Part shown: positions 26,610 through 64,000 of the stretch, in pieces
Layout of the letters: every line of letters starts with the position of its first letter
Position numbering within the stretch: position 1 is the first letter of the stretch
Assembly: GCA_016928835.1 (NCBI GenBank)
Contig: JAFGJW010000005.1
Coordinates: 37,815 to 101,814 of the forward strand
DNA from: Candidatus Woesearchaeota archaeon
GTDB lineage: Archaea; Nanobdellota; Nanobdellia; Woesearchaeales; GW2011-AR15
Direction of reading: 5' to 3'
Length of the DNA: 64,000 nucleotides
Program-made: the position numbers and the translations under genes
The notes under the pieces: model-generated
Database searches by the model: none
What the model saw: only the letters and a program-made list of their open reading frames with translations
Told to the model about the DNA's origin: nothing

Positions 26610-26611
26610 TC

Positions 26612-27620: not shown

Positions 27621-27770
27621 ATGTCACAGAAGGTTTCAGTAGTCAATGTCCGACTTCCAGAAGATATAGTGGATTGGCTTGATTCTCTTGTTAAGAAAAA
27701 CATTTACAACAGCAGGTCAGAAGCAATAAGAGAGTTTACTCGGGACTATGTTCTTAAAAACAGGGAATAG
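27621..27770 (+). CDS. Ribbon-helix-helix protein (CopG/NikR/CdrS-like), 49 aa, absent from the ORF track
   Basis: MSQKVSVVNVRLPEDIVDWLDSLVKKNIYNSRSEAIREFTRDYVLKNRE*: RHH strand VNVRLP plus SRSEAIRE. Confidence 0.9.
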   Translation: MSQKVSVVNVRLPEDIVDWLDSLVKKNIYNSRSEAIREFTRDYVLKNRE

Positions 27771-27773
27771 CTA

Positions 27774-28034
27774 ATGACAGATAAAATAATCTCAGTTAGA
27801 ATGCCTGTTTCTCTAGTTGATGAGCTCAAGTCATTAGCAGAAAAAAACCATTTTCTTGATGTAAGCGAGGCCATAAGATCTCTTATTAGATACAAATGGC
27901 TCGAATTTCAGGATCCTTACAGTGCTCACCTAAAAGACATTAGAAAGAAGGTAACAAAACTTACTGTTCCTGCAGATGTAAATGCTTTGAAACAGGATTT
28001 AAAAAGGCTTATGGAGAGGCTAAATGAGATATAG
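27774..28034 (+). CDS. Second ribbon-helix-helix protein with C-terminal helical extension
   Basis: ISVRMPVSLVDELKSL...DVSEAIRSLIR. Confidence 0.85.
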   Translation: MTDKIISVRMPVSLVDELKSLAEKNHFLDVSEAIRSLIRYKWLEFQDPYSAHLKDIRKKVTKLTVPADVNALKQDLKRLMERLNEI

Positions 28035-31000
28035 TGTTACAAGCAGAGCAATAACAAGGATGATTTTCCTAATTATAGTAGTGGTAGCAATATCATTTGT
28101 TGCTTCAGAAAACATAACGCTTGAAAATGTGACTTTCGAAGATGAAAATGGTTTGTATGGAGAGATAGAATATGTACAATCAGAGGATCTTTTTAATATC
28201 TCTTATGAGAGTGAATACATTGATATTGATGAATTGCTTAATGAGTCACTTAATGAACCATTACCAAATAATACTCTGAAACTTGGGCTTAGTTCTGAGG
28301 TTGAAAACCTTAAGAACACATTTAGTGAATATGAATTTGCAGAGCAAGGAACAAAAATAATTGTTGCTCATGATGAATCCAAAGCAGTATTTAATGGTCT
28401 GGAGCCAGAGGAAATTACAGATATTAAAATGATCCATGATGCAGAGATGGCAGCAGACATATTTGCCATTAACTCTGTTGAAGTTGAGCAGGCAGTGATT
28501 TCACTTAGAAAAAATAGGGATATAGATAATATAATGTATTGCGATGATTTTGACTTTGAGACTGGTGAATGTACATGGTTATTCACAAACCTGGAATTTG
28601 AACAGAATGGTACTCATGTATGGTTTACTGCTACGCATTTCAGCGCCTATACTGGCTGGAGCAATGATACAAACACAAGCAACAGTACTTATGCTGCTGC
28701 CATGCTGATCTGGGACAGTACAGACAATGATTTGCCTTATGCTAATAAGACAATATACCCTACAAACACCACAGAGTTCTTTGCAAATTATTCAGTGAAT
28801 GAAACTAGGGCAGGTGCAGACTGTCGCATAACATTTGATAGTCTCCAAGCAGCAATGCAGTACAATATGGAGTATTCTATTTATTATTACAACAGGACAT
28901 TTGATAGTCCTGGGACATATGCATATACTGTCAACTGCTACAACGGAAGCTATGACAACCTGACAGCAGCAGATAATGTCATTATAAGCAGCTATTCTTC
29001 ACCTCAGTCAAATACTACTAATTCATCAGATACAGATTATGATGGAGACGGCTACAATGCAAGCATTGACTGCGATGATCTAAACCCAAATGTCAATCCT
29101 GGAATGCAGGAAATCCCATATAATATGATTGATGATGACTGCAATATATCAACGCCAGATTACCTTGTACTTGAACTGGTTGCTAGTAAGCAGACCTATT
29201 CTTTGGGAGAGATCAGCTATATCACAATTGACGCACATTACGGGTCAGATGTGTATATCACAGTAAATACTCCTATTAATATATCCTATATCTACATCTT
29301 TTCAAACAAATCATACCCCATTACACAGGAATTTGTATTCACAAACAGGTCTGGCACATATTCTGTTGAGAGCATTTTGTATTACACCAATTACACACTC
29401 ACAAAAACACTTGATTTCAATGTTGAAAATAGCATTCAAGCCCAGATTTCTGTTAACCAATCTGTTATCTATGTAAATGATAGAGTAACACTATCAGCAT
29501 CAGCTTCAGGAGGCCTTGGAAGCCTGACATACGAGTGGAATCTTGATGACGGTACTACGAGCACTCAGCAAACCCTGGGCCATACATACACACAACCAGG
29601 GACATATAATATTGTACTTATTGTTAAGGACCTGGAAAATAATCAAGTTGTTGTAACCAAGCAGCTTATTGTTTTAAGGAAATATAGCGTAAAAATAACG
29701 GTTGTAGACAACTGCACGAATCATACGCTGGATGATGCAAGAGTTAAGCTTGATGACGAGAAAAAATACACAGAGAATGGAGCTGTTGAATTTATTGCTA
29801 CCAACAAAACCTATAGCCTAAGGATATCTAAATCAGAGTATGAAGACTATGAAGATACAATAACAATCGACTCTGACACATATTTTACCATTGGTCTTAA
29901 GAGTGAAAATGATTTGGACGTGATTCTGCTTGCTCCAATTAATAACTCTGAGATTACTTCAAATGCACAATTCAAATTCACAGCTACAGCTTATGCAAAC
30001 TGTACCCTGTACACTTCTGAGGATAATTCATGGTGGACGTCACAGAAAAGTATTGCAGCAGCACCTGGTGAAGAAATTGGGATAGGTGCAAATGATCTTT
30101 CAAGTGCGCTTGAAAAAGGCGTATATTACTGGAAAATAGAGTGCGAGAACATTGATTCTGTATTTAGCGAGACCTGGAGATTTAAGCTCACAGATATAAT
30201 AGTTGATAGTGATAATGAGGAGGGGGACGAAAATCCGAAGATATTTACCTCTGCGGGAGAGGAAATGGAAGAGAACGAGACATTTAATGTGGTCCAGGAA
30301 GTCTATAACCTCTTGCCTGATTTTGACAAGTTCACTCCTGAGCAGAAAAGGGTTGCGGAAATATTAGTGCTTGAATCCAAACTAAAAGAGTCAAAGAAAA
30401 AACTTGATATGGCAAACAGAGACCTCTTTAATCTGAGGTATAAGACAGACTCAGCTGATATTATTGAGACTAGGGATGAAATACTTGTAAGGATAGAGAC
30501 AATAAAAGATGAGACTCCTATCTCAGTCAGAGTTGAGAAGAATGTGCAGTTTATTAAGTATATAGAGGATGATGATGCTGAGGAATTGCTGAAAAGATAC
30601 TCAGATATTAAGCATCTGGAAGCGAGCAGGAGTTACATAGAGCAAAATAAGATGCTGCAGAAAAAAATCACTATATCAACAGAAGCATATAATGTTGAGC
30701 TTGAATATTTGTCCAAACGGGTGGAGAAGTTTACCATAGTAAGCAAGAGCATTGAGCTCGGCTCAGAAACAAACACATTAAGACTTGTTGAATTCCTACC
30801 AAAAGACATTGTTCAATCTGCTGATGATATAATACTGCTTACTGGAGAAGCTTTAGTCATAGAGAAAGATCCAATTCTAGAGCTCGACCTAAATACAGGT
30901 GTGAGAGAGCTTTCCTACAAATTAAGCAATCAAATCAACCTTGACATAATACCAAAAATCAAATCATTAGTTGTTGCTCTTGATGTTGATGAATCCCAAA

Positions 31001-31518
31001 ACAGGATTACTGGTTTGGCTGTGCTTGACAAAATAGGAGTATCATCAAAAAACAAATTCATTTTTGTTATTGAGATTGTTGTCATTGTTGTCTTGTTAGT
31101 AGTCTATATGAAGAATACAAAAAAGCTTAGTAATGAAGATTTTGAGCAGGTGCCAAGCACATTTGCAGAAATGCAAAAAATCCTGAGTGATGCAGAAGTA
31201 CTATTAACCCAAAATAAAGTCGAGGAGGCAGCAATGAAGTATGAAGAGTCAAAATTAATGTTTAATGCACTCGAAGATAGACAGAAAGAGCAGCTGTATC
31301 CTGAAATAACAGAGTTATGTAATAAGACCAACTATCACTATCTCTTGAAGCTAATCGAGGATATATATTCTCATCTGGCAACAAAGGATCATGAGAGAGT
31401 AATAGAACTCTATAATGAGCTGAATCAGGAATACCAACAGCTCCCTGAAAATTATAAAGAAACGATTTACCCCAAATGTTTAGAATTGGCATCAATACTT
31501 GGAGACAATGAAAAATAA
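28024..31518 (+). CDS. Large membrane-anchored surface protein (MopE-like Cys motif, PKD, Ig-like) with cytoplasmic helical tail
   Basis: Signal peptide, THFSAY, DYDGDG..DCDD.NP.VNPG..EI.YN.IDDDC, PKD (YEWNLDDG..HTYTQPGTYNIVL), TM at about aa 1013-1028, then about 135-aa helical repeat tail. Confidence 0.8.
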   Translation: MRYSVTSRAITRMIFLIIVVVAISFVASENITLENVTFEDENGLYGEIEYVQSEDLFNISYESEYIDIDELLNESLNEPLPNNTLKLGLSSEVENLKNTFSEYEFAEQGTKIIVAHDESKAVFNGLEPEEITDIKMIHDAEMAADIFAINSVEVEQAVISLRKNRDIDNIMYCDDFDFETGECTWLFTNLEFEQNGTHVWFTATHFSAYTGWSNDTNTSNSTYAAAMLIWDSTDNDLPYANKTIYPTNTTEFFANYSVNETRAGADCRITFDSLQAAMQYNMEYSIYYYNRTFDSPGTYAYTVNCYNGSYDNLTAADNVIISSYSSPQSNTTNSSDTDYDGDGYNASIDCDDLNPNVNPGMQEIPYNMIDDDCNISTPDYLVLELVASKQTYSLGEISYITIDAHYGSDVYITVNTPINISYIYIFSNKSYPITQEFVFTNRSGTYSVESILYYTNYTLTKTLDFNVENSIQAQISVNQSVIYVNDRVTLSASASGGLGSLTYEWNLDDGTTSTQQTLGHTYTQPGTYNIVLIVKDLENNQVVVTKQLIVLRKYSVKITVVDNCTNHTLDDARVKLDDEKKYTENGAVEFIATNKTYSLRISKSEYEDYEDTITIDSDTYFTIGLKSENDLDVILLAPINNSEITSNAQFKFTATAYANCTLYTSEDNSWWTSQKSIAAAPGEEIGIGANDLSSALEKGVYYWKIECENIDSVFSETWRFKLTDIIVDSDNEEGDENPKIFTSAGEEMEENETFNVVQEVYNLLPDFDKFTPEQKRVAEILVLESKLKESKKKLDMANRDLFNLRYKTDSADIIETRDEILVRIETIKDETPISVRVEKNVQFIKYIEDDDAEELLKRYSDIKHLEASRSYIEQNKMLQKKITISTEAYNVELEYLSKRVEKFTIVSKSIELGSETNTLRLVEFLPKDIVQSADDIILLTGEALVIEKDPILELDLNTGVRELSYKLSNQINLDIIPKIKSLVVALDVDESQNRITGLAVLDKIGVSSKNKFIFVIEIVVIVVLLVVYMKNTKKLSNEDFEQVPSTFAEMQKILSDAEVLLTQNKVEEAAMKYEESKLMFNALEDRQKEQLYPEITELCNKTNYHYLLKLIEDIYSHLATKDHERVIELYNELNQEYQQLPENYKETIYPKCLELASILGDNEK

Positions 31519-34500
31519 TATAGATAATCTGCTGAAAAATACTTTTGTAGCCTTGCTTATTGTACTGTCTATACTCTCCTTATTAATTGTCCAGGATTAT
31601 GTTGCATACGTAGGTTACCATGAAGCAGAAGCAGGCCAGATAACAGAGCTAATAGTTGAAGAGATATCGCCTGCTTGGTACTGGAACGGGATATATGGAA
31701 TAATTATCATGGCGCCTTCGATTAACAGCACCTGGTATGTAGAGGCTTCAAATGCAGGCATGGACAATCTTAACCCTATAGTGCAGTGCCTTGAACCTGG
31801 GATAGAGCATGAAGTCTACGCTTCTTTGGTAAATTCAGCAAACATAAGCTGGAATACTATAACAAATGCTTCGCCAGAGATGGTTGATACGTGGCTTGGT
31901 ATTCCTCTTAATCACAGCACTTCAGCAGTAAATACCTTTACTGAGACAATTACAGTTGAAGTTGGCAACAATACTATCTCAAATGTTCCTGCTGTTTATA
32001 CCTATCAGTCAACAAACTGGTCCAGCACTGTCTTTGCTCATGGACTCCTTTGGGATGGGACTAATATAATAATAGTCTCAAAAGTCACAGAGGGATATCC
32101 TACAGGATTTAATAATAATCCACTTAATTACCAGATGTTTGTTCCTGTCCAGATAAACACTACCCCTATTTATTATATCTTTTCTGATCCCAGTGATGTC
32201 TGCCCAGCAGGTGAAGGAGAGTCGGTAGAGAAGGGAACTGTATATGGCTGGGTTACTGATAATGCAACTGGTGTGCCGCTGGAAAATGTAATGGTCTTCT
32301 TAGGCAGGGATTATGATGTTACCGATCAATATGGATATTATAATGTCTCAGAGATGGCTGGTGACTATAAGATAGTTGCCATTAAGATGGGTTACAACAA
32401 CTATGTTGGCAATGTGACTGTAATAGAAAACAATTATACAAACCATAACATATCAATGGTCCAGTATCAAGAGCCGCTAACAGGCACCGGGCCGGGAGTT
32501 GGTACAGGTGTAGGGCCTGGACAGACAAGAAAGACTGGTGAGGGCCCAGGCATTGGGCCAGGCATTGGACCTAGCATTGGTCCTTACCTAGAGAAGCCTG
32601 AGCAGATGGGTATAGACCATTTTGTCTCGCTTGACAGGCTGTATAAAAAAATAAGGCTTGGCAACTTCTTTATTGAACACCTTCTGATATACAGCTTCAG
32701 AGCAGAGCCGGCAAGGGTGAATGTGGATATCACTGGAAATGTGACAGAGATTTTGGAGATAGATAAAACACAGTTTGTTATTGAACAGAACCAATATGAT
32801 AATGTTACTATTACGGTTTTTGGTAGCAAAATAGGGACCTTCACCGGAAAGATACAAGTGTCAGGGGATTTTAATGACTCGCTGCCTGTTGAGATCATTG
32901 TAACAGACGAGGACAAACTGCCTGTTGAAGCTCTCCTAATGCAGCTTGAAGTTTTGTCAAGCAGACCTTATGCAGGTGATAAGTTCAAGTTCAGAATGAA
33001 TCTCCATAACTTACTAGTGGAAGAGAAATATAATGTCTCATTGCATTATTACATAAGAGGAGTTGAGTCATCGACTGCTAATAATACACTTTACCTTGGA
33101 AATGATACCGTGGAGCTGCTCACAGCAACTTCTTTGATTAAAGAGGTTGAACTGCCAGAAGACTGGGAAAAAGGGGATTATTTCTTAATCGTAGAAGCAT
33201 ACTATCTTGATTTGTATTCACAGGCATCTACAGTATTCACAATATTTGAACCAATCTACATGTATTCTGTGTTTGGTATAATGCCCTTGTGGAAGCTGCT
33301 CTTGATTTTGCTTGGACTTACTTTACTAATATTAACGGTTATCATAGTCCGGACACGCATGGAAGCAAAAAAGAGATTCCATGCAAAAGTTGAATACAAC
33401 CTGCTTCCAAAAAAAGGTCCAAGATCGATTTATATTGGAAAGATAGCAGAGACTGAAAGAGATACATTCTTCGACATGGACAAGCTTACCGTGCACACAA
33501 TAGTAGCAGGTTCGACTGGAGGCGGTAAAACTATCTCAGCTCAAGTAATAGTGGAGGAATGTTTGATGAGGGATGTGTCAGTTGTTGTGTTTGATCCAAC
33601 AGCACAATGGACCGGCATGTTAAGAAAATGCTCAGATGAGAAGATGATGTCGTTCTATGCCAGATTTCACCTGACAAAAAAAGATTCCAGAGCTTTTAAT
33701 GGGAACATAAGAGCAATTAAGAATCCGAGAGAAAGGATTGATTTGATGAAATATTGGAAGCCTGGAGAAATACATGTTTTCACGTTGAGCACACTTGACC
33801 CTAAGGATATCGATATCTTTGTCGCAAATACTGTTAGAGAGGTCTTCCATTCAAACCTTCAGGAATTCCGTGGGTTAAGAATGCTCATGGTTTATGACGA
33901 GGTCCATAGATTGCTCCCAAAATTCGGAGGTTCTGGAGAGGGCTTTATCCAGATAGAGAGAGCATGCAGGGAATTTAGAAAATGGGGTATAGGTGTACTG
34001 CTTGTGTCCCAGGTACTCGCAGATTTCGTTGGTCAGATTAAGGCAAATATAAACACAGAAGTACAGATGAAGACAAGAGATGAGGGTGATCTTAAGAGGA
34101 TAGAAACCAAGTATGGTAAGGCTTATATCCAGGAACTGGTTAAGGCGCCAGTCGGCTCTGGCATGGTGCAAAACTCTGCCTGGAACAGAGGCAAGCCGTA
34201 TTATGTTACCTTTAGACCTATCCTCCATAGTGTGAAAAGACTTGGTGATGAAGAACTTGACAAATACAACAAGTACAATAATATGGTCGATGATATTGAT
34301 TATCAGCTTGAGCAACTTGAACAGGAAGGTGTTGATATTTTTGACCTTAAGCTTGAACTTAAGCTGGCACGAGATAAGATAAAATCTGGCAACTTCAACA
34401 TGGTTGATATATACCTTGAAGGATTAAAACCAAGAGTTGAGAAGCACTGGCAGACTCTTGGCAAAAAACCTCAAAAGAGAGAGGTTGAATTAATATCAGA

Positions 34501-35467: not shown

Positions 35468-35487
35468 CAGATAATTACAAAATCAAA

Positions 35488-35715
35488 ATGTTTGAAAGAT
35501 ATATGGAGATATGCACAAAGAGGAGGACTCACCTTATCAATGTACTTGAGGGCAATACCCAAGAAATTGATCCATGCACTCAGCACAAATTATACGGTGC
35601 AATAAATGAGATTGGGTTCATTATTGATGCACTTCACTATTATGAAGAAAAAAACTCAAATAATGGTAAAGAACATGGTATTAAGGAAGAGCAGGTAGAC
35701 AATGGCACAAACTGA
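35488..35715 (+). CDS. Hypothetical small protein
   Basis: 75-aa ATG ORF in the operon, overlapping the next gene. QHKLYGAINEI motif. Confidence 0.6.
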   Translation: MFERYMEICTKRRTHLINVLEGNTQEIDPCTQHKLYGAINEIGFIIDALHYYEEKNSNNGKEHGIKEEQVDNGTN

Positions 35716-36607
35716 TTCAAATACAAGCATTAAGGAGATTGGTGTGGATAAATACTTTCGCTTCCAAGATGGGCAGATTGCGAAAAATCCAGTTGAATTG
35801 CTCCATATACTACCTAATTTAAACCCGTCAGTATTTGACTTCCACTTGAATCAAAATAAGAATGATTTTGCAAACTGGGTTGAGGATGTCTTTAATAATC
35901 ATGGGCTTGGCAAGGAAATGCGTTCTGTTACATCTAAACCTGAATTGATTGCAGTGTTAGGTAAGTATTTCGACAAAAAAGAAGAAGAAGTGCCGGAGCA
36001 GCCGCAACAGGAAATAGAAAAAAAAGCAACAGAACAACATGATAAGATAGAAAATAATAATGCAGCATATGAGAGCCCTGAGACAAATAATCCTGCAAAA
36101 GAGGACATACAAGTAAAATCTGCGGACTCTGTTGGACAACCTGGGCCAGAAACAGTGGATAATACTGATAATAGTAATACAAGTAATGAACAAACTTCAG
36201 AAGTTCCTCCAGTTAAGGAAAATACTGCGAAATCAGCACCAAAGCTTGATATAAACAGAATTGACAAGATAAAAGAATCAATCCACTATCCGCCAATTGA
36301 GAAAGCGAGTTATGAGCAGGTTCTGTCTCCTGACAGCCTTGCTAAAATGTATGAAGACACCCACTCAAAACTATATTCCCGTTGCAGTGAATTAAGGAAA
36401 AGCGGGAAAGATACTAGACTTGCAGAACTAATGCTTATGAGGATTAAACCAAGGATCAAACTTTTCCGGGCAACACTTGGCAAAAAGGATTCACACTATG
36501 TGGAACAGCTCATAGAGGACGCAAGAGAAGAAATCAATCATATTAACTCATTAGATGAAAATACTCCCAAAGAGCAAAATGCAGAACCAACAAAAGAAGA
36601 AATGTAA
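35702..36607 (+). CDS. DUF5752-like domain protein with acidic linker and helical C-domain
   Basis: N-terminal YFRFQDGQ..KN..EL...FDFHLNQNKNDFANWVEDVF, homologous to the two repeats in the upstream ATPase. Confidence 0.75.
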   Translation: MAQTDSNTSIKEIGVDKYFRFQDGQIAKNPVELLHILPNLNPSVFDFHLNQNKNDFANWVEDVFNNHGLGKEMRSVTSKPELIAVLGKYFDKKEEEVPEQPQQEIEKKATEQHDKIENNNAAYESPETNNPAKEDIQVKSADSVGQPGPETVDNTDNSNTSNEQTSEVPPVKENTAKSAPKLDINRIDKIKESIHYPPIEKASYEQVLSPDSLAKMYEDTHSKLYSRCSELRKSGKDTRLAELMLMRIKPRIKLFRATLGKKDSHYVEQLIEDAREEINHINSLDENTPKEQNAEPTKEEM

Positions 36608-36653
36608 AGTTTTATAAAAATAGAGGAAATAACAAAATAAAAAGAGGTGTAGT

Positions 36654-37922: not shown

Positions 37923-38071
37923 ACTAATCCAATTTTTACTTCTCCGATCCTTATATTTTTCCTGATAGATTATTTCTCCTATATCAATTATAACATATTT
38001 ATCCAATATAATTGTTTATTATCCTGTTATGATAGCAAAGTTCTTAAATATATCTGTTCACGGATTATTTT

Positions 38072-41190: not shown

Positions 41191-41198
41191 TCCAACTA

Positions 41199-41927: not shown

Positions 41928-41929
41928 TT

Positions 41930-42550: not shown

Positions 42551-42584
42551 TTATTTTAATTATAATTAGGAGACAGCGATATCA

Positions 42585-43169: not shown

Positions 43170-43170
43170 A

Positions 43171-58100: not shown

Positions 58101-59733
58101 TACTTCAAAGGATTCCTCTCAGATTATTAATGGTGGTACAAACAACCTCACAGTAAACAGACTCAATGGTACAGTAATATGGAGTATTGAGTGCTATGAC
58201 AATACCAGCCAGCTGATGTATAACAGATCTTCCAATAGAACGCTCAATGTTGATGTTGATGGACCATTACCTATAATAACTACAGCTAATCAATCATGGT
58301 TTAATACAACAACCCCAAGTATCAATTTCTATATAATTGATAATATGGATCTTGACTCAATTAACTATAGTTTTTTTGTAGATGCTGTGAAAAACACTAA
58401 TGGAACTATAGGTAATAATACACCTACATCTGATAACCTTACTATTCTGGCAGATGGGCCACATATAGTGCTGATTGAGGCTTATGATAATGTAGGTAAC
58501 TACAGGAATTCATCCCCTATCACTATTTATGTTGATACAATAAAACCAAGCATAAGGCTTAATGAGCCTACCAACGGGGGAACCACAGTAACAAATATAG
58601 TAACATTCAATTATACTCCAATTGACGCACTTTCATGGAATCTAACCTGTAACCTGACACTTGACAACACTATTAGAAACACATCTGTAATTCTCAATGA
58701 TACCAATTTTACTGTGACTATTGGAGGCTTAACAGCAGGAATCCATTGGTGGAATGTTACATGCATGGATTTGGCTGGAAATATAAATACCAGTGAAACA
58801 TGGAATTTTACAATACCTCTGCCAGATTTTACCCTTAACTCAACACATATTGTGTTCAATACAAGTGCTCCGCAGGAAAATAAAAACCTTACAATCAATG
58901 CAACTGTATTTAATATCGGTCAGTCAGATGCTGAGAATGTTGTCATACAGTTCTATGAAGGACACTATAGTCTGGGAAATCAGATTAACGGTAATTTCAC
59001 AAGGAATATATCCAAAGGGGCTAATGCAACAGTAAGTGTGAATTGGACGCCAACCACTACAGGCAGCTTTGATATTTATGTTATTGTTGATCCTCCTCTG
59101 GCAACTAATGGATCAATTGCAGAAGAGAATGAATCAAACAATTATGCACATAATCAGTTGGGAGTATCCAGCAATCACGTCTTGTATGGGAACCTCAGCG
59201 GAGTTCTTTATATTCAGGACCTGACCAATCAGACACTCTATGAATGGGACCCAACCAACTTCAGTGGAAGCAATATCTATGCGGCAGATTATGATGCACA
59301 GATTGACTGGCAAAAGTTGCATCCTCTTGGAAGAAGTACTGCAAATGTTAGTGAATTTGACGATTTCCATCAGCTTGATACACAATTATTCATGGAAAAC
59401 AACTCGGATGATATCAATGCTACATGGACCTTTAACAACTCTCCAAGACAGACAGATTCATTCACAGTGTTTAAAAAGAGCATTTCTCTTGTGCCAATTG
59501 TGAACTCAACAAACAATACCAATTTTATCACTGGCATAATGTGGGATACCTCTGACCCCAACCTTGGCGGAAGATTTAATGGTTCGCAGGATGTTGTCTT
59601 TGTTACCAGGATAAATGAGAATACTACAGGCTCATTGGGATTATATGATTTTGAGATGAAAATTCCTGCTAATGTCAGGCTTCACAAGACACCAGACCAA
59701 ATTACTGTCAAGTTATATGTTGAAATAAAATGA
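43171..59733 (+). CDS. Giant (5520 aa) secreted adhesin-like glycoprotein
   Basis: Signal peptide, MG2-like, DUF2341-like (WWDTNWNKRRSF), jelly-roll-like inserts, many Cys-stapled Ig-like repeats (NCSL.ING...YNW.V.C.D), two CARDB-like domains, dense N-x-S/T. No C-terminal TM. Confidence 0.88.
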   Translation: MLTPHTLRTNTKTVLLILLFNILTLTTFSEDRLIQLDKYQYLPFEKVNINLNIDIQDTHRLVIKNQGKEYQLFDPKQYTYFIPSAEGRYVVELYSSTELMASQEFMVGEVPESEQNESDQTHEEEELLENTSIMNLAIYTNKPSYSVNEPVQILTSYEGGFKNLILTVHCKDIAYRFMNEPRSGIMFVPKEPGEYVIKVTDPLGRLVAEVQFNVEGIVETAPEGISNSVSEIGVVEDVVDAEPEDNEDTEEVSYSLVKIKNSNNELFDSKAKIYGQTQTILGSSNVSSSTYTMEIQLDNNNGPKIIFKDIKISDSILLNYEQLDQGIVRQGNLASKNIKKAYAIDPSTLEFSSGELRLIAEGTELFKCKNYDFLSRSCYGSWDKIMDIVPGQEYSIILGPEDPAYAEAGVASINTVKSIYHPNETAGIMIVVLDKYGHLVSNAEVNLTITDPNNSSFYFSTNANTISETQTGIYSLNFTQTEHEGNYLMKIIAYGANTNQTMQSYFNVQEHYEFDILRNTPITIDPWKYRLVSSILIVSNNYTGNFSFAEVLPLGFGIESAAGAILTSDESNIYLTWNNLANNSLIVYSSYIPLITPALYEIGPSIITYGTSSFYEARAWYLAVDPSQAQMFKETFPNADGTWNGDGNGDTAQDMTGWYAWQEGGDMAVQVSDLDNAAGSLPPSGGNHLTFEDCDNGFSNTQCLAAININLSACDSDTVISWYWQHDDTDGFPANEGHQVHYSTDSTTGQDGTWTLMEEQIDPTENTWFRTSYSVPSSANVEGFWVRFRARMNVDGEHVYIDDVEANCTIDYEPNVTLEYPPQNYLNSTSDPVNVVFNCSAKDDFDVYNISLYITNAYNQSFSFNNSCNVATQNGSCNWTLSLHNGNYTWNCLAYDNRSQHDWGDSNRSLLIDDAYPNTPVVNSYECEINSAGNWQLCNNLAYGSTLRQVRVNCTVQGANVTNVTISLFNIPDSNYLLDNYTSDNSTGYWQLDIDDILIEDSGDFNISIICLSSRGIEKANSTFWSIPWGTLEGVLLNPTSSRDVIQNTTFNFSSRVSCIGGECGDVNATAGYKGEWWDTNWNKRRSFNLTSPDNTERINEIVRVNVSGFGGSLSSCDDELRIISGLTSEQFAEIPFTVESGDNSTWCYVRFLANVSSTTPTHYYAYYNNIAATNPGYSAVKISYVDNSNFSATTDWTYYETEPDDTGEYTTAQSYSPTQSYNIYTGTAATQGNYAEIFQDIVLPCHNCSLTVSAYNRLESAGTTENAFYAQIIMDTTTLSSVGTPPDGSSPIDWTMRSNTYTPSSSVERLHLRFLSDVTFASGWGQRDVFWDNVEIAPVNPINNVVTIGSEENLVVPISTTPSAAPFWTSSSNPYTPLTRPCLGNLKSGESCDTTWIVNATGAINSKWDLLVQYAPTTYASYISNNITSHVEITIVDYIRPEISNIQCKEIAQAWGDCSDVQFNDQLDAIRAQCIYDVGDPIQNMTFKLTNINDNYVYFDSVTADNSSGYWLLNISDITIRDSGDFNLYATCTANPTGVDDINWSIPFGFLTLGLLPFTNQNRNVTQNQFFTFRAELNCNGGECGDSNASLWYKNADTSLQVIEFIGFEDDAVEEAKWIDDAAPSGVLSVEAGADWNPRTGSYALAMTGNIDPALDYWYRNISLAGYEDVSIEMYSSTEDTESADDYIMYYWNGSEYSFMWEDLNRDSGSQTVWSQHITPIPYSEVTNDFRIRVGWSTSSAAETMILDDVNVSGYKLYYWNLLNTTSGDLPLYTIDSNPLYPLDTSCLHNMSGGDSCTLEWQVNATGSISSVWNMIVWSEPLNYSQNVSRINSSIINLTIVNNALPHVVDISLTPDYPEDFNDLVCFFTVEDPDVFDDLYVNVTWFRDNISFESNIINVTSGIEYSDIMESSNTSINDEWYCQVTPFDNVGAGNTTNSSVVTILSDAPPLIHYIQCQEDNMTWGDCSIIGFSDYLTQVRVNCTDTQKVTNATFSLINIPDNYEFFNATTSYQQGDYFILNISDILIQDSGEFNLHVVCRDNASNERYDFADWTVPWGTLVASLVSPSANVSVSKGVFFTWTSSVLCSGGECGSINATLDPEALKGNEPGINIINPQSYPMLGGNWTVLFNTKGKSDLTITVNEDTAWSNVEDKGDLKFMDLRCGQDIVDYEWIHTGDQQSVFVPGYECSDVSYETSRVLTSGRHNLVFDYGPNRVYAHNLVSYVHSDGSQGTSFTFNISSPDNRLVVIVADDESTGTYLTGVTVDGKSCDLVNTADNPVGAGNHMEMWYCDEDHLGSSSGDVTIAITGADPGWAIHAHLYTGVDQNGPYDNQTDSTSQSQNEILPGAIDIPLNGLLVFGAANGQSGSYNDADWDTNPTEGTDDGLSPEIEMTEVTDGPNPASAVLATAYWISTISDQTDRLFRARGSTANNRGTGIIASWKLAQLSKGVIPNTPGSTPFWTSTANPHGYSVSSCLENMTDGDICTTSWEVNATGGLNTVWEFFAYYNASTYTGYIETNYTPSIYITIVNNTLPNITALDLLPIFPPNYVNLNCTFTIYDPDFDNDLTVNVTWFRNNITFESNVYSVTSGQQYIDIMESSNTSTNEEWHCQVAPFDNLGPGTPMNSSHRIVLDNAPPQVTGVLCQLENTTWIDCTNIVFGQNLTAVRANCTDDFKVENVSFWFFNLEDNYVYFNNLSSYNYSKQFVFNNTDVHILDSGNFYLNVTCYDNSSLWDRQVINWSIPWGTLSASLVDPDSDTSVQRNAFFTFTSSITCLGGECGDVNAILDPLSYVRSSGTTGTSFSFDIGSPQDRLVVIVADDESTGTYLTGATVDGKSCDLVNTADNSIGTGNHMEMWYCDENHLGSSSGSVTVAIQGGNAGWAVHAHLYTDIDQHGPYDSQTDSTSQSQNEILPGVVDIPADGLLVFGAGNGMSGTYNDADWDTNPTEIADDGLSPEIEMTEVTDGPNPDSAVLATAYWISSTTEQTNRQFRARGSTANNRGTGIVASWYELYKGIVPMFAGSPFYTIDQNPMSYLNTSCLADMIAGDTCQVSWQVNATGQLGSTWEFFVDYNTTEYDAQVSDARTSSVYITITDASLVPPQVYLLNPDDATQTNNASIEFECHATDNIGLQNLSFYLTTTDTLQFNDSVPASGTETNVTFNKTLEEGWYKWNCWAFDTDGNDDWGATNRTLIIDLTKPWINLTYPTPNATFIVQDIIFTWVPIDNFGNPIICNLTINAIDYSVNYTDTGISVNNNTEGSSPIMGIFPNTYLWYVTCIDEAGNVNVSETRNFTISDLPPTVELITQDDYWTNQHNITLYYNATDNEGINHSDLYINGAYNKSNYTVEMEEPQWFDLFNLAEGRYNWTVNVTDVGNLTDQAPWQTFYIDYTDPIIILNYPNESISINSSSIDVNFTAIDNLDPTLVCNITINGTVNESGINADSNQSTIQTISGLRDGISFMNITCIDEAGNINTSMTVAINVSAPPTIELNYPDQNHSQKLNSIYLNYTPSDNSGLDHCDLLINGGYNDTEPAPNNNEMNYFYLEDMKEGAYTWAINCTDISGYHNISKTRTFFIDFTAPNITLIIPPPGDIVTSSIVVFNYTVADNLAEDMMCNLTLNGAVNISNIPSPNNTVVSRNITIFEETTHYWNVTCWDGAGNINVSVTWNFSVLVPPAVDLISPDDNYVTNISEINFTYYSFDSSGLQNSTLIINGQPNKSDPAPNNDAYNFFNLTGLADGRYNWTVQVFDDDNLSTTPDVKWFTIDTAPPTVQIIFPTSYYTVTTNNFSLQFNASDNLDDYLRCHIYFNEQLLSGNVSVQNGFVHSESMLKNDGYYNWSVICFDEINNSAYSGLINFSVEAPPNVSLDAPPNMTRTSNTSLTFYFTPHDDFGLQNCTLILDNELNGSVIDPASDVQQSISVDNLIGGMHNWTVRCIDAPPDLNEYAPPVKHFIIDLTGPAIDLIFPEEYGVYNYDDINFTWNATDMWGTALICNLTIDERVNVTNISATSGLLANQTVFNLSQGNHNWSITCWDDFNNTNSTGLVNFTINAPDLTLNNTHIGFNNTNPDINETLTINASIYNLGGATALNVPIDFWDGLPESGVYIGTDILASVSPGFSELAEIEWNITGGYHTIWVIVNYTGVELNTSNNNASVNISVLRSMINSPLNNSYSNALQPTFNFTLQDYTYDTINYSVLVDGAPNGQTGQVTDNVSQTVNVPLSAGQHYVQIRATDYLGRIKDSERVYIIVDRTDPSLNYIWPTPPDNWVQAVTNVTINVSIEEDNPDTLILYWAGFVNETRKDYGNLSNYTLYNLSEGVYTYYVWANDSATNFAQTSERTVRIDLKEPTINLESPDNEDTWTTSNVVEFYYNVSDASQYLNCSLLINGTVNDTSYNVEPYLSQNFVMYLRNGKYTWAINCSDQLGRVNISETRNLTVNAELTNWSRIWYERHTNDWTSTAFISLMPQPDAVENNINTSIGNQTLYTMANATSPYFGGNGVLIPMNTAVEFWGTFLSTGRWGYVTWKVVLSNSTGEYLIAQSGNDDDTYTGSNYIYPPANNRRTLNGTDFTAKTWILGPLDRIRLIVNIFNDDTSQPEEFIHYWDEYIGRSWSYVEFDQFITVGSLVVNLTEPSSDLVIPPNMTYNHTCLVNCSVGTCIDTYVYALYNSSGINWTNISSSGNLVLNGTQQNPLFLGNITEAQNVTFIIRGVLASENNIRCYAESLSSTAYSPQIRKVTVNDTIPPNVTLSSPENGYWLDYRNVTFYFDASDNVGLGNCSIFIDGLWNATKSGSELINNGLNNFTVDNIPEGYHNWTVECNDTNTNKGTTDTWNFTIDLTKPTINLIYPGDTANITSQPFDLNFTVIDNLDTNLTCNLTIDGVLYRSNFSAINNTVARTSVTLTEEDTHYWNVTCWDGESLSNINNVNYSKTRSFNLFIPPNITLVSPDDNNWTGNENVTFFFNVSDSTGIHNCTIIINEQKNTSKDSSQIINGGTNNLTVNRLNGTVIWSIECYDNTSQLMYNRSSNRTLNVDVDGPLPIITTANQSWFNTTTPSINFYIIDNMDLDSINYSFFVDAVKNTNGTIGNNTPTSDNLTILADGPHIVLIEAYDNVGNYRNSSPITIYVDTIKPSIRLNEPTNGGTTVTNIVTFNYTPIDALSWNLTCNLTLDNTIRNTSVILNDTNFTVTIGGLTAGIHWWNVTCMDLAGNINTSETWNFTIPLPDFTLNSTHIVFNTSAPQENKNLTINATVFNIGQSDAENVVIQFYEGHYSLGNQINGNFTRNISKGANATVSVNWTPTTTGSFDIYVIVDPPLATNGSIAEENESNNYAHNQLGVSSNHVLYGNLSGVLYIQDLTNQTLYEWDPTNFSGSNIYAADYDAQIDWQKLHPLGRSTANVSEFDDFHQLDTQLFMENNSDDINATWTFNNSPRQTDSFTVFKKSISLVPIVNSTNNTNFITGIMWDTSDPNLGGRFNGSQDVVFVTRINENTTGSLGLYDFEMKIPANVRLHKTPDQITVKLYVEIK
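49831..52194 (+). repeat. Intragenic duplication of a ~220-aa domain (49831-50493 and 51535-52194)
   Basis: RLVVIVADDESTGTYLTG...NHMEMWYCDE...DDGLSPEIEMTEVTDGPNP...RARGSTANNRGTG occurs twice, with long identical nucleotide runs. Confidence 0.95.
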
Positions 59734-62700
59734 GAACCAACCATACCAACCATAGGCAGGAAAAAATATTGTATGGGTTTAGCATATTTTTGGTCATGCT
59801 TTTTGGATTAGTCATTGTTAAATATGTTTTGGCTCCTGCAGGAAGCACTTGTGCAACTGAGAATTATGTCTGCGCCTGCGACCCTAATTGCCAGGGAACA
59901 TATGAACTAATGGGCAATAGCAAGACTTTCTGCCAGAGCAACCCCATAAATTGCTTTAACACAATTGACAGCTGTGCCGATGGTTCAGACGAGTCAGGTT
60001 GGGAGTATGTTGAAAAAATGATTATTACTAATATTAACAGTACTGATTTTACTGGAGGGAATATTGTAGAAGTCTTTGGGCAGTATTATTGTTATCCGGG
60101 GGACATAATAACAATAGCATATTCAAATAATTCAAATGCAGACAGTACTATATGGAGAAATGTTTATTCAGGTCAATGTCCCAGCTTCGGCTACTATAAT
60201 GTTTACAGGAATTTTACCTTAGACGAAAACGGAGGAATGCATGCTTATAGGTTTATTATAGCCTATCCAGGGGCTTCTGAGATGACATGTGGCCAAGCAT
60301 ATTCTAGTTCAGACACTGATGATATTGATTTCTATGTGATACCAAAACCAGACCTCGAGAGCCCAAATATTCTAAATATATATCCTGCCACAGGACAGAA
60401 TTTTGAGTATTCTGTTGGATTAGAAATACCTGTTATCGTGAATGCAACGGATTTTACAGGAGTCAATGAGATTTATGCCAATATAACCTGGCCTGGAGGA
60501 CAAAATCTGAGTAAAATCATTTTCCACTCTGCTAACCAGTATAATGCAACAATTAAGAATCTGGCAAACTTCACTAGATACAATATCACAATAATTGCAA
60601 ATGATACTTTAGGCAATCTGGGACATAATTACTCACACTTTTTTATTACAAACAACTATGGTGTCAATATTACCAGCCCAATTCTTTCCAATACCTACCC
60701 TTACAAAAATATTAGCTTAAGATTTATTATCAATGACAATAATACACCTTATCAGGAAGTGTATTATTCTTTGAATTCCCAGAATAACACCTATTTATTT
60801 GAAACATTTTCTATTGTAAATAATATTAGCAACAGCCCTGCTTCATATCTGCAAAACAACTTAACTAACATATCCCAATCCTTCAACACAACAGAAGCAA
60901 TGAATGTTAATTCTATTAGAATGCGACTTAAGAAGAGCACAAGTAGCACATATCTAACCTCAGTTCAGATACGGGAAGACAATTCTGGCGAGCCAGGCAC
61001 AATGTTGATTTCCTATAACCTAAGTTCTGATTTAATGAGTGATACTGACTTTCAATGGGTAAATATCACTTTTAATGATACTATCACTCTGCAAAGCAAT
61101 TCATACTATTGGGTTTACCTGAACTCATCAGAGGACGACACTGATTACTTACTGTGGGAGGCAAACAATGACACATTTGCAAACGGAGTCTCATATCAGA
61201 ATAATAGTATGGACTTGCTTTTTTATATCTATGATCGCTTTAAATATTCTGCTACCCTAAATGCTTTAGAAGGAGGTAACACTCTGGATGTGTGCGAGAG
61301 AGATGCTATCAGCATTATTAAATGCTCGTACACAACTTTCAAGGCTGACACTATACCCCCTGTTTCAGGAATTCCAACTGAGACATCAGATCCATTTGAG
61401 CTTGGTAATCCTTATCAGTTTATTACAATTAATATAAATGATGTGACTAGTTCTGTGAACAGTGTTAGAATTAATGCCAATGGTACCAATTATACAACTG
61501 ACTATCTTGGAAGCAATAATTATCAGTATAGATGGGATATTGACCATCTAGGCACGTATTACTATTGGTTCTATTTTAATGATTCTGTTGGAAATACTAA
61601 CCAGACATCGGCATACAATTTTTCAGTTGATGATACAAGAGCGCCTGACACCTCTGATCTAGCTTATTATCCTACAATTTCAGGGCAGCTTGATCCAAAT
61701 CAGACTATATATGTAAATATAACGGTTGCAGATTATTCAGAGATTATGAATGTTACGCTGCAGTACAAAATCCAAGACACATCAATATGGATTAACAAAT
61801 CTATGTATAATTCAAGCTCAACATACATGCAGAATTTCACTCCTGACACAGAGGCGAATTGGTCATTTAGAATTTTTGTAGTTGATGAGCACAACAATAG
61901 TAATACTACGCAAACAATAAACGTATCCGTATTCTATGACAAAACATGGAACTCATCGCCAAGTGAATTCAGTGAAATCTTCATAGCTCAGGGTGAAATC
62001 ATTGAGGCAGGCAATATCACAATAAATAATACTGGCGATACAAACCTGGATTTCACTGTTGCCAAGTATGCAGGGACCCCTGTTGTCTATATTAATGAGA
62101 CCTCTTTCATTGTTCCTTCCCAGGCGACTAAACTCGTTAATATCTCTGTTCAAGCCCCTGCTCAGCACCCTCTGCCATACTCATACACATTGGTGATTAA
62201 TTGTGTAACTGAGAATTGCGAAAAAAGTCTGGATTACGTTGATGGACTTATCGCGGTTGGCGAGGGAGGAACTTATCTGAGTTTCAGTGAAGTTATCTAT
62301 GATCCATCAGTTACTCAAGGACAGAGAAAAATCCTGCTAAATACTACTATCAAAAATATTGGCAATGAAACTGCCTTGAACACAACATTGAACTGGTCTT
62401 TGCCACCTGGCTGGGGAACCAATGATAACCTCACTACATATTTTGGAAATATCTCTCCATACTCAACCACGTTCCAACTTGAATATTATGGTATTTACAC
62501 AGATGTTGCATTAGACGCACCAACAGGTACACAGAATCTTACTATTTATCTTGAATATTATACTATCTCAAATGAGAGTAGGCTAAGATATATTACTAAA
62601 TCAATTGAAGTGGCAATATATGATACTGGTCAGGGGGGAGAAGAAACTCCGGGCCCAGGTGATGATACCCCTAGTAGAGGGCCTAGTGGACCTGTATCTC

Positions 62701-64000
62701 CAACAATAAGCTCAGGGGGACCACTTTTTGTACCTACATACAACCTTACACTATCTTTTCCAAGAACAATAGAGATACTACGGGGGCAAAATAAGACATT
62801 GAGAGTGAATGTTACTAATAATAATGATGCAATATTCAATGATTTAAATGTTGGAGTATTAGGTTTCCCTGTTTCCAGGTTTAAAATAACCCCTCTAACA
62901 ATCGAAAAATTAGAGCAGAATGAAACAGCTTATTTTGATATTTTTTTTGATATTCCCACTTATATGGGTTATGAGATATACACTCTTAATCTGATATTTA
63001 ATGCTGTAACTACACGTACCATTAATTCGAGCAGAAGAGAATTTACACAGGAAGAAATTCTTGCTTTGATTGTATCAGAAACTGACCTGAATTCTTCCTT
63101 AGTCTGTTTGGTTGAATCTGAGGCATTGATTGATGAGATGATTGGAAAGAACTTAAATACAGATAGTGTACAGGGGCTCTTATCTGAAGCAAAAGCTGCA
63201 TTTGGCAATCTTGATTATACTAGAGTTAAATTACTATGTGACCAGATTCGCGATATACATAGAAAAGCTCTTGAATTAAATGGTAGGATACTGGCACTTA
63301 GCAAAGAGATTGAGATTGCGGAATCAGATGGTTATGACATAAGTGCAATTATTAGATTACTAAATCTAACAAGTGATATGTTTAATAGAGGAGAATATGA
63401 TGGAGCAGAGCTACAACTAGAGAAGACTGAGGAATCCCTGGTGCTGCAAATACAGATGGAAGATGCAATGCTTACTAGAAAATTTTTTAGGATATTTAAA
63501 AAATATTGGTGGGCCTTTTTGCTCTCCCTAACCGTTGGGTTTGTAATTGCTGTCCAGACTTACAGGAAGAAATCTGAACTCAGAGTCAAGGAGAAAATAA
63601 GTAAATTAGAGAAAGAAGAATCAACAATTAGTGAACTGACGAAAAAATTGCAGCATGAGCATTTTGTGGAGCATGCAGTCTCTAAAAAAGTGTACGAGAT
63701 AAGGATGGAGGACTATAAAAAGAGGCGTGCAGAGATAAAAGATGAGATTATTTCGCTAAAAAATCTACAGATTAAATTATTCAAGATATCAGATTCAGTT
63801 GAGGGACTAGAAAAACAGAGAAACGAACTGACTGATTTAATTAAAAAAATGCAGTATGATTATTTTGTATCACATTCAATTGATAAAAACACATATGCGA
63901 GAACTCGAGAAGTATATAAAAAAAGGATGAGTGAAATTGAAAAGAACTTAGAGACAAAAAAAGGAGGAGTGGAAGGAAAGCCAGAAAATGCAATTTCTGG
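59730..64000 (+). CDS. Large membrane-anchored surface protein (>1420 aa), 3'-truncated by window edge and absent from the ORF track
   Basis: ATG overlaps the giant gene's TGA (ATGA). MRTNHTNHRQEKILYGFSIFLVMLFGLVIVKYVLA signal, Cys-rich N-domain, Ig-like domains, G/P-rich linker near 62630, helical stalk. The same frame gives a TM (WWAFLLSLTVGFVIAV, about 63507-63554) and a repeated cytoplasmic tail. Both ends were translated; the middle was not checked codon by codon. Confidence 0.85.
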   Translation, partial: MRTNHTNHRQEKILYGFSIFLVMLFGLVIVKYVLAPAGSTCATENYVCACDPNCQGTYELMGNSKTFCQSNPINCFNTIDSCADGSDESGWEYVEKMIITNINSTDFTGGNIVEVFGQYYCYPGDIITIAYSNNSNADSTIWRNVYSGQCPSFGYYNVYRNFTLDENGGMHAYRFIIAYPGASEMTCGQAYSSSDTDDIDFYVIPKPDLESPNILNIYPATGQNFEYSVGLEIPVIVNATDFTGVNEIYANITWPGGQNLSKIIFHSANQYNATIKNLANFTRYNITIIANDTLGNLGHNYSHFFITNNYGVNITSPILSNTYPYKNISLRFIINDNNTPYQEVYYSLNSQNNTYLFETFSIVNNISNSPASYLQNNLTNISQSFNTTEAMNVNSIRMRLKKSTSSTYLTSVQIREDNSGEPGTMLISYNLSSDLMSDTDFQWVNITFNDTITLQSNSYYWVYLNSSEDDTDYLLWEANNDTFANGVSYQNNSMDLLFYIYDRFKYSATLNALEGGNTLDVCERDAISIIKCSYTTFKADTIPPVSGIPTETSDPFELGNPYQFITININDVTSSVNSVRINANGTNYTTDYLGSNNYQYRWDIDHLGTYYYWFYFNDSVGNTNQTSAYNFSVDDTRAPDTSDLAYYPTISGQLDPNQTIYVNITVADYSEIMNVTLQYKIQDTSIWINKSMYNSSSTYMQNFTPDTEANWSFRIFVVDEHNNSNTTQTINVSVFYDKTWNSSPSEFSEIFIAQGEIIEAGNITINNTGDTNLDFTVAKYAGTPVVYINETSFIVPSQATKLVNISVQAPAQHPLPYSYTLVINCVTENCEKSLDYVDGLIAVGEGGTYLSFSEVIYDPSVTQGQRKILLNTTIKNIGNETALNTTLNWSLPPGWGTNDNLTTYFGNISPYSTTFQLEYYGIYTDVALDAPTGTQNLTIYLEYYTISNESRLRYITKSIEVAIYDTGQGGEETPGPGDDTPSRGPSGPVSPTISSGGPLFVPTYNLTLSFPRTIEILRGQNKTLRVNVTNNNDAIFNDLNVGVLGFPVSRFKITPLTIEKLEQNETAYFDIFFDIPTYMGYEIYTLNLIFNAVTTRTINSSRREFTQEEILALIVSETDLNSSLVCLVESEALIDEMIGKNLNTDSVQGLLSEAKAAFGNLDYTRVKLLCDQIRDIHRKALELNGRILALSKEIEIAESDGYDISAIIRLLNLTSDMFNRGEYDGAELQLEKTEESLVLQIQMEDAMLTRKFFRIFKKYWWAFLLSLTVGFVIAVQTYRKKSELRVKEKISKLEKEESTISELTKKLQHEHFVEHAVSKKVYEIRMEDYKKRRAEIKDEIISLKNLQIKLFKISDSVEGLEKQRNELTDLIKKMQYDYFVSHSIDKNTYARTREVYKKRMSEIEKNLETKKGGVEGKPENAIS

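Follow-up and report, generated by a model that had tools for sequence, protein, structure and literature searches.

A candidate split, short-ectodomain version of the SPEARE-type surface apparatus in a woesearchaeal genome

Do two neighbouring operons of surface-protein genes in a DPANN archaeon encode one ATPase-rooted machine for attachment to a host, and would such a machine be new? The question is raised by a stretch of 64,000 nucleotides from a Candidatus Woesearchaeota archaeon (GenBank assembly GCA_016928835.1, contig JAFGJW010000005.1, positions 37,815 to 101,814 of the forward strand; hereafter the window), which lies in contig C7 of a genome of 1.53 Mb and 20 contigs rated 95% complete. 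The original prediction, made from the letters of the window, had proposed an undescribed cell-attachment apparatus. The word "undescribed" has to be given up, as the ATPase belongs to a SPEARE-type family that was reported in 2019 (PMC6642349) and re-read in 2023 (PMC10266531); the outcome named in advance as fatal to the proposal, that the locus maps onto an already described system, thus applies in part, to this ATPase family. The kind to which the locus belongs is known but mechanistically unsolved. We consider it fairly probable that the locus is a split, short-ectodomain version of the SPEARE-type DPANN surface apparatus, for which an attachment mechanism is proposed below; that it forms a single machine including a giant adhesin is plausible but unproven.

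Genes are present at all the coordinates originally predicted, in two plus-strand strings (open reading frame (ORF) listing and translation). In operon 1 (27621-37922) neighbouring genes lie close together, overlapping or standing apart by 3 to 46 bases, and operon 2 runs from 42585 past the end of the window (lengths in amino acids, aa):

27621..27770, plus strand: RHH1, 49-aa ribbon-helix-helix (RHH) regulator, first gene of operon 1; sub-threshold matches to NikR N-terminal, CdrS and aCcr1-type RHH proteins
27774..28034, plus strand: RHH2, 86-aa RHH regulator; Pfam RHH_1 at 26.3 bits (cut-off 20.5)
28024..31518, plus strand: surface protein, 1164 aa; Pfam PKD_4 and PKD, MopE motif
31499/31508..35467, plus strand: SPEARE-type ATPase, 1322 aa; central DUF87/HerA domain, E 4.8e-9, above cut-off
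35488..35715, plus strand: 75-aa gene, from the ORF listing
35702..36607, plus strand: 301-aa cytoplasmic protein; DUF5752 at E 0.021 on its own
36654..37922, plus strand: coiled-coil protein, 422 aa; conserved family with fixed motifs
42585..43169, plus strand: 194-aa putative winged-helix regulator, head of operon 2; sub-threshold matches only (HTH_24, E 0.0098; LysM-type regulator, E 1.2e-4)
43171..59733, plus strand: giant adhesin, 5520 aa; Big_13, CARDB and Big_7 above cut-off, MG2 sub-threshold
59730..64000, plus strand: membrane-anchored surface protein, 1450 aa in the genome (end at window position 64082); overlaps the giant gene by 4 bases

Both operons begin with the genes that had been called DNA-binding, and for RHH1 and the 194-aa winged-helix protein that function is suggested by sub-threshold matches. 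No protein of the operons exceeds its cut-off in NCBIfam.

The ATPase protein and its family

The 1322-aa ATPase protein has hydrophobic segments at residues 8-26 (weak) and 599-617. Outside the membrane it is predicted to expose a head domain (residues ~36-245), a CarboxypepD_reg-like domain (the one such match in an ectodomain of ~560 aa) and a conserved juxtamembrane region (~370-590), and inside to carry a HerA-like ATPase domain (~620-1010) followed by two DUF5752-like modules (~1031-1120 and 1216-1305). The density of NxS/T sequons, 3.24 per 100 aa outside vs 0.14 inside, agrees with this arrangement. The protein had been described as single-pass; given the extra N-terminal segment, this description assumes a cleaved signal peptide.

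The ATPase is probably catalytically active, because Walker A, Walker B and an arginine-rich REFRKWG block are invariant across 15 diverse sequences. An AlphaFold2 (AF2) model of the domain from a 15-sequence alignment has a predicted local distance difference test score (pLDDT) of 88.3 and a predicted template modelling score (pTM) of 0.88. Foldseek ranked Sulfolobus HerA (4d2i) first in the PDB (E 1.1e-11, template modelling (TM) score 0.53), followed by HerA of HerA-NurA and defence complexes, and also returned TcpA (E 4e-9), FtsK (E 6e-9) and VirB4 (4ag6, E 5e-8); by sequence, the PDB matches are to HerA only. Judged from the model, the fold is nearest to HerA, not to VirB4. Of the earlier label "HerA/VirB4-type" the HerA half is thus retained (DUF87, Foldseek), whereas VirB4 ranks lower and its N-terminal domain PF03135 is missing. 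The RecA-like core, with Walker A and Walker B, is closest to that of HerA, and yet the ATPase is not a HerA in the strict sense. The defining feature of HerA is an N-terminal barrel, and there is no room for one here because only ~50 residues, modelled as three short strands, separate the membrane segment at 599-617 from Walker A (~aa 671-678). Nor does the protein share the multi-pass membrane region of FtsK, since one membrane segment precedes the motor; FtsK_SpoIIIE (PF01580) gives no match in it at E <= 0.01. NCBIfam models for TraD, CedD and TraB match sub-threshold over the Walker A region (27 bits vs cut-offs of 366-600).

The closest known proteins are giants. In Hamm et al. 2019 (PMC6642349), Nanohaloarchaeota are described as having SPEARE proteins that reach 8553 aa and are mostly extracytoplasmic, with a membrane segment near the C-terminus. 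Conservation is highest in their intracellular portion, for which the annotation at the time was type III restriction-like. The paper also lists short versions (655 and 717 aa) and shows by proteomics that the protein is made, and SPEARE-like sequences are recorded in Woesearchaeota, Aenigmarchaeota, Micrarchaeota and Altiarchaeales. In the 2023 paper (PMC10266531), the same region is re-read as a membrane-anchored VirB4/TraG-like ATPase preceded by Ig-like repeats and by a membrane segment; the giants end in a coiled coil, and another ATPase gene lies downstream of them. For the giants SVXNc_0300/BNXNv_0298 the paper proposes a "straw" like that of type IV secretion, and it disputes the serine-protease and toxin-like domains of the original SPEARE proteins.

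We compared 60 relatives, 19 genomes of the same family and 41 from other families of the order. Orthologues of the ATPase at 71-82% identity occur in 17 of the 19, and strong matches in 13 of the 41. In G037, G049, G052, G053, G054 and G060 the ATPase domain ends open frames of 3903-15811 aa, often followed by a paralogue of ~700 aa. A word-indexed search limited to long proteins returned 219 proteins of 2315-5000 aa (E <= 1e-10, 44-64% identity) with source names that include Woesearchaeota, Pacearchaeota, Micrarchaeota, Aenigmatarchaeota, Hadarchaeales, Nanohaloarchaea and Ca. Nanosalina; the homologues named Nanohaloarchaea or Nanosalina are 48-59% identical to the ATPase domain. By profile search, 4330 cluster representatives match at E <= 0.001, 854 at 1e-10 and 427 at 1e-30, and the 150 matches listed range from 452 to 6253 aa, with the ATPase domain near the C-terminus in most. 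Among 228 members with at least 80 aa upstream of the domain, a hydrophobic segment lies at most 70 residues ahead of it in 217, and the upstream part measures 82 to 5646 aa in this set, which is biased towards long proteins.

Judged by sequence, the ATPase domain of the window is the conserved cytoplasmic domain of the SPEARE-type giants, an assignment made through homologues named Nanohaloarchaea and Ca. Nanosalina rather than the published SPEARE accessions themselves. It has the P-loop domain and the juxtaposed membrane segment of those proteins, and a sub-threshold ResIII match as in the 2019 annotation. The long ectodomain is lacking: it measures ~560 aa here, and the 5520-aa giant is a separate gene. 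No Pfam match to serine-protease, laminin-G or toxin-like regions was obtained in any of the surface proteins, whether the ATPase protein, the giant or the others. Across the family the conserved chassis is a juxtamembrane ectodomain, one membrane helix and the HerA-like ATPase, and the ectodomains ahead of it are exchangeable, from fewer than 100 to thousands of residues.

We also noticed some unusual members. Frames of 9862-15811 aa with the ATPase domain are found at G060:C41, G049:C4, G049:C11 and G060:C93, one of them with an in-frame TGA and TAA; if real, they would be among the longest archaeal genes. A second copy of the domain at G008:C5:26413-27498 contains one to four stops, depending on the span taken, and looks like a decayed paralogue. 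Two ATPase-domain giants (proteins P0078 and P0080) are labelled Hadarchaeales, which are not DPANN, and suggest either a mis-binned contig or a wider distribution.

Gene order, the coiled-coil partner and shared domains

A conserved neighbourhood around the ATPase had been put forward as the test of the prediction, and the result is positive in both gene order and co-occurrence. Twenty loci of 14-20 kb were compared with the window proteins by tblastn, and 14 loci from named records were also compared. The order RHH, RHH, surface protein, ATPase is colinear in 11/11 same-family loci, and the DUF5752-like and coiled-coil genes then follow in 10/11. Each component repeats this picture: RHH1 has a homologue at the same position in all 11 and also in L045, L046, L053 and L064, RHH2 is colinear with it across these loci, the gene of the 1164-aa surface protein stands directly upstream of the ATPase gene in 11/11, and a homologue of the 301-aa protein lies downstream in 10/11. 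The 75-aa gene has a homologue in just two of the 11 (L033, L041) and no match in Pfam or NCBIfam. In the window's family the operon is fixed in its make-up, including the two RHH regulators, the anchored PKD protein and the DUF5752-like modules.

In other families, L045 and L046 have the RHH pair and surface protein ahead of the ATPase, and the full series RHH, RHH, surface protein, ATPase, coiled coil, giant is found in L053 and L064, with a second ATPase ahead of the coiled-coil homologue in L064. In L044 the surface protein, ATPase, DUF5752-like protein, coiled coil, regulator and giant follow one another with nothing between. The two operons of the window are thus side by side, with no unrelated gene between them, in the more distant relatives L044, L053 and L064, and in L035 a KaiC-like gene alone intervenes. 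A homologue of the 194-aa regulator directly precedes the giant gene in L035 (45% identity) and L044 (35%). In the named-record loci the coiled-coil homologue is directly downstream of the ATPase in 9/14, after a KaiC-like gene in L061 and after a second ATPase in L062 and L064; the two remaining loci are too short to judge. The giant is found on the ATPase contig in G000, G002, G005, G008, G010 and G012. Taken with the exceptions weighed below, its linkage to the ATPase is loose rather than strict.

By comparison, the coiled-coil gene has the tightest linkage to the ATPase throughout the phylum. Its alignment has fixed motifs and represents a real family, not heptads alone. It has no named relative in Pfam or NCBIfam, its Atlas neighbours are unnamed DPANN clusters only, and its family profile against the PDB returned coiled-coil noise only (best E 0.005). 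Among the 60 relatives it occurs in exactly the same 30 genomes as the strong ATPase match and in none of the other 30. In a sample of 301 high-quality genomes drawn evenly from the phylum, scored at E <= 1e-30 for the ATPase and E <= 1e-8 for the coiled coil, the ATPase was found in 53 genomes and the coiled coil in 62: both in 51, the ATPase only in 2, the coiled coil only in 11 and neither in 237. In the two ATPase-only genomes, one match is cut by a contig end and the other is a fragment of 79 positions. Where both are present, they lie within 5 kb of each other in 37 genomes; in 6 they share a contig at a greater distance, and in 8 they are on separate contigs. The co-occurrence spans dozens of families.

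Hydrophobic segments at residues 9-27 and ~1004-1030 of the 1164-aa protein would place an N-terminal signal or anchor, a PKD ectodomain and a C-terminal membrane segment ahead of a helical cytoplasmic tail of ~135 aa, with 3.24 sequons per 100 aa outside vs 0.65 in the tail. In the 1450-aa protein the scan lists a segment at residues 17-35; a second, near residues 1265-1285, was seen by eye only, and the layout proposed from these is an N-terminal anchor, an ectodomain, a membrane segment and a repeated helical cytoplasmic tail. The giant adhesin has a weak N-terminal signal-like segment, Ig-like/CARDB repeats, a conserved C-terminal domain of 240 aa and a sequon density of 5.1 per 100 aa. 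No hydrophobic membrane segment was detected in it at the threshold used, in agreement with the predicted adhesin without anchor. All predicted outside parts have 3.2-5.1 sequons per 100 aa and all predicted cytoplasmic parts 0-0.65; the proposed topology, including that of the two anchored proteins with cytoplasmic helical tails, is supported by hydropathy and sequon density. Within the giant gene (window ~47500-52500) a block of several hundred residues appears twice, nearly unchanged, when the translation is inspected by eye, which points to a recent internal duplication. In L034, L036 and L038 the gene homologous to that of the 1450-aa protein is close to the ATPase operon and comes after a KaiC-like gene.

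Two shared domains connect these proteins. The resemblance first noted between the last domain of the adhesin and the first domain of the ATPase holds at the profile level: in a single hhalign comparison of shallow profiles, the last 240 aa of the giant match residues ~104-217 of the ATPase over 106 columns (probability 93.4%, E 2.5e-7), and the profile comparison by our own script gave 90.7% and E 1.3e-6. BLASTP between head and tail returned nothing (best E 1.4) and is superseded by the profile comparison; similarly, in a single-sequence search with the tail domain, the ATPase head was unmatched in all 21 genomes. The tail domain itself is found, 38-58% identical, at the C-terminus of relatives' ORFs of 636-8809 aa, including giants of 4238-8809 aa, and at that of a second protein of this genome (2282 aa). 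An ORF of contig C5 (5663-12496) carries the domain at 44% identity. Scored with the ATPase in 20 relatives, both occur in 11, the ATPase only in 2, the tail only in none and neither in 7, and tail-domain genes lie near the ATPase in L055 and L057. Small ORFs of ~230-275 aa weakly similar to the tail (E 1.9e-5 to 9.1e-4) were also seen at G000:C2:33386-33826 and G000:C5:1983-2255, with others in G006, G008, G010 and G024; they may be stand-alone copies of the shared domain.

The second domain is a DUF5752-like module of ~75 aa, present twice in the C-terminal tail of the ATPase and once in the 301-aa protein, where it is followed by a low-complexity linker and a C-terminal helical part. It recurs in extra genes of relatives and at the end of the L034/G008 homologue of the 1450-aa protein (ORF 14449-18891). 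The copies in the window stay below threshold (14.6 and 19.3 bits vs a cut-off of 23; E 0.021 and 7.6e-4), whereas 18 of 26 aligned copies match PF19027 at E <= 0.01 over positions ~53-81 of its 208-position model. The designation "DUF5752-like" is therefore kept in a restricted form: by sequence, the modules are related to a sub-region of DUF5752 and are not full members. Their profile also matches the "ORFY protein" of PDB 4cso (E 3.3e-6); the label "transcription factor" for OrfY is the depositor's.

Proposed mechanism and competing explanations

In the mechanism that we propose, the core would be a membrane-anchored protein with a modular adhesive stalk outside and a HerA-like ring ATPase of the FtsK-HerA superfamily inside, accompanied by a dedicated cytoplasmic coiled-coil protein. 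A hexamer of the ATPase under the membrane, its ring form being suggested by the superfamily, would gather several stalks into one attachment site; the coiled coil and the DUF5752 modules would act as a cytoplasmic scaffold, and ATP hydrolysis would move a polymer (DNA or protein) or do mechanical work at the contact with the host. The giant adhesin, fused to the ATPase in other lineages, would here be a separate secreted protein encoded nearby with another anchored protein, and would be held at the surface via its C-terminal domain, homologous to the outermost domain of the ATPase. Giant surface proteins are tied to this motor because the ATPase domain is fused to giant ectodomains in other families; we infer that the separate giant belongs to the same apparatus because of this fusion and the sharing of domains.

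A bolder form of the proposal, which we regard as speculative and rather unlikely, would make the single-pass HerA-like ATPase and the coiled coil a core of two genes for an envelope motor present throughout DPANN archaea and different from type IV pili, type IV and type VII secretion systems and FtsK-type pumps. Lineages would bolt interchangeable adhesive ectodomains onto this core, the split giant would here re-attach non-covalently via the beta-rich domain that it shares with the ATPase tip, and the ring would move DNA or protein between symbiont and host where the two cells touch.

Several observations weigh against a single machine of this kind. In the window the operons are 4.7 kb apart, with apparently unrelated genes between them (UbiA-type, FAD oxidoreductase and a minus-strand KaiC-like trio). 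The giant with the matching tail and the ATPase are on separate contigs in G001, G006 and G009. In G002, G008 and G010 a distance of 37-53 kb lies between the end of the giant and the ATPase domain, of which the giant gene itself makes up 14-26 kb. The one exception to the order in the family, G004, has its coiled-coil gene on another contig, and 11 of the 301 genomes contain the coiled-coil gene with no ATPase detected. The profiles behind the head/tail homology comprise 13 and 10 related sequences. For the docking idea in particular, complex prediction of the ATPase head with the giant tail scored 0.00 vs a mark of 0.32, which is not evidence either way, and the AF2 model of the tail (10-row alignment) has a mean pLDDT of 49.7, which is not good enough to look for related folds. 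A subunit that crosses the membrane by a single helix is not a promising basis for a channel to conduct DNA or protein, and the operon encodes no multi-pass partner. Related genomes are not independent samples, and for this reason no statistic is given for the co-occurrence. No RNA run was found for the organism; one DNA run contains it and is perhaps the source sample.

The explanation that survives best beside ours treats the operons as unrelated neighbours: that of the ATPase would encode a self-contained "mini-SPEARE" receptor or adhesin, and that of the giant another surface-protein locus in a genome with many such genes, without docking or joint work. The unrelated genes between the operons would then need no excuse, nor would the relatives in which the giant lies far off (three) or on another contig (three). 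At least seven further ORFs of more than 1800 aa, none with the ATPase domain, are present on other contigs of the genome, and the 4-base overlap couples the giant translationally to the anchored 1450-aa protein, a possible anchor. What this explanation leaves unaccounted for is the direct adjacency, in L044, L053 and L064, of coiled coil, regulator and giant (near adjacency in L035), the tail-domain proteins that adjoin the ATPase in L055 and L057, the head/tail homology, the confinement of the tail domain to ATPase-bearing genomes (11/11) and the covalent fusion of giants to the ATPase in other families. We hold it to be unlikely, with real weight nonetheless.

An improbable account is that of a type IV secretion-like injector, in which a VirB4/TraG homologue would push effectors through an Ig-repeat "straw" into the host, as proposed for the nanohaloarchaeal giants in PMC10266531. 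VirB4 and the coupling proteins do belong to the FtsK-HerA superfamily, Foldseek returned TcpA and VirB4, and some homologues have sub-family Pfam labels such as TrwB_AAD_bind. HerA structures nevertheless come first (E 1e-11 vs 5e-8 for VirB4 4ag6), and the sequence matches in the PDB point the same way. PF03135 is absent from the protein and from the whole 95%-complete genome, and VirB6/TrbL (PF04610) was not found there, in a search that did not extend to VirB8, VirB3 and others; in this respect the poor fit to standard systems that had been noted at the outset is borne out. The second ATPase of ~700 aa beside the fused giants in G060 is also of the DUF87/HerA type and has no PF03135, and Ig-like repeats are solid beta-sandwiches, not known conduits.

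Last, a cytoplasmic DNA-repair or anti-virus HerA (of the HerA-NurA, Sir2-HerA or DUF4297-HerA type) sitting by chance among surface genes would explain why HerA proteins of repair and defence complexes come closest among the solved structures, and is highly improbable, being contradicted already by the architecture (a membrane segment before the domain in 217 of 228 members, a sequon-rich ectodomain, no room for the barrel), by the absence of a NurA, Sir2 or nuclease gene from the operon and by a separate 659-aa HerA on contig C8, 3.3 kb from the genome's only NurA match.

Genomic setting and comparison with known systems

Directly upstream of operon 1 (window 24891-27480), a NUDIX hydrolase and a family X DNA polymerase that includes a PHP domain are encoded; L035, L037 and L040 have the NUDIX gene in the same position, and this points to a stable place in the chromosome. 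We considered a mobile or conjugative element and rejected it on this synteny, on the even guanine-cytosine content over the window and on the way in which the operon follows the genomes of the family. Between the operons, a UbiA-type prenyltransferase and an FAD-dependent oxidoreductase (38072-40112) are followed by a minus-strand trio (40087-42232), in which a KaiC-like ATPase (Pfam KaiC, E 1.7e-35) is accompanied by two proteins, one of 100 aa and one of 367 aa, the latter without family; the UbiA-type and oxidoreductase pair, then the minus-strand 367-aa and KaiC genes, are syntenic in L039. Relatives also have KaiC-like genes next to the cluster: in L034 and L036 such a gene immediately precedes the one homologous to that of the 1450-aa protein, and in L040 the 100-aa and KaiC pair comes after the coiled-coil gene. 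Five of the ORFs elsewhere in the genome measure 2277-4469 aa:

C19:84392-97801
C2:16715-28339
C17:105128-116532
C16:66235-76176
C5:5663-12496

Type IV filament ATPases are present in the genome, on contigs other than that of the window. A scan for sigma-70-type promoters and terminators gave counts close to those of shuffles (61 vs 58.6; 11 vs 9.4), this type of scan being inapplicable to archaea.

How DPANN archaea hold on to their hosts and take up material from them is an open question, for which SPEARE-type giants are among the few candidate molecules. With 53 of 301 genomes positive and 82-5646 aa ahead of the domain, the motor part is much more widely distributed and much more modular than one would expect from the nanohaloarchaeal examples, and it has an almost obligatory and previously unremarked coiled-coil partner gene. 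The short split version also provides tractable proteins (a 390-aa ATPase domain, a 422-aa partner and 75-aa modules) vs giants of 6000-9000 aa. In the literature we did not find the coiled-coil partner, the RHH pair, the split arrangement, the head/tail homology, the conserved gene order, the ATPase/coiled-coil co-occurrence or the HerA-nearest fold in print, with the limit that supplements of the 2019 paper, notably SI Fig. S17 and Table S3 with their lists of non-halophilic homologues, may bear on this. A preprint (bioRxiv 10.1101/2023.02.24.529834) describes other coiled-coil proteins, beside type IV pilus genes.

Among known systems, the membrane DNA pumps and their relatives (FtsK/SpoIIIE, TraB, VirD4/TcpA, VirB4 and the archaeal Ced ATPases) resemble the window ATPase in having a ring-ATPase core tethered by an N-terminal membrane segment. 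The window protein differs from them in its one membrane helix instead of several and in its large ectodomain, predicted to be glycosylated, and no FtsK gamma domain, VirB4 N-domain or VirB6/TrbL channel gene was found with it. HerA, represented by 4d2i and the defence HerA proteins, is the best structural match to the core and shares Walker A and B, the arginine-rich block and DUF87. In contrast to HerA, the window ATPase is 12-17% identical to it, membrane-anchored and without the N-terminal barrel, and has no NurA, Sir2 or DUF4297 partner in its operon, the HerA-NurA pair being elsewhere in the genome.

The SPEARE giants are the nearest relatives in architecture, with the P-loop domain directly after a membrane segment, an adhesive ectodomain ahead of it and a DPANN distribution that includes Woesearchaeota. 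The coiled-coil element that follows the ATPase inside the published proteins is a separate gene in the window, the ectodomain measures ~560 aa and not thousands, the giant adhesin is a separate unanchored product, and no second ATPase gene lies downstream in the window's family. The RHH pair, the PKD surface protein and the DUF5752-like modules of the window operon are additions to the SPEARE plan.

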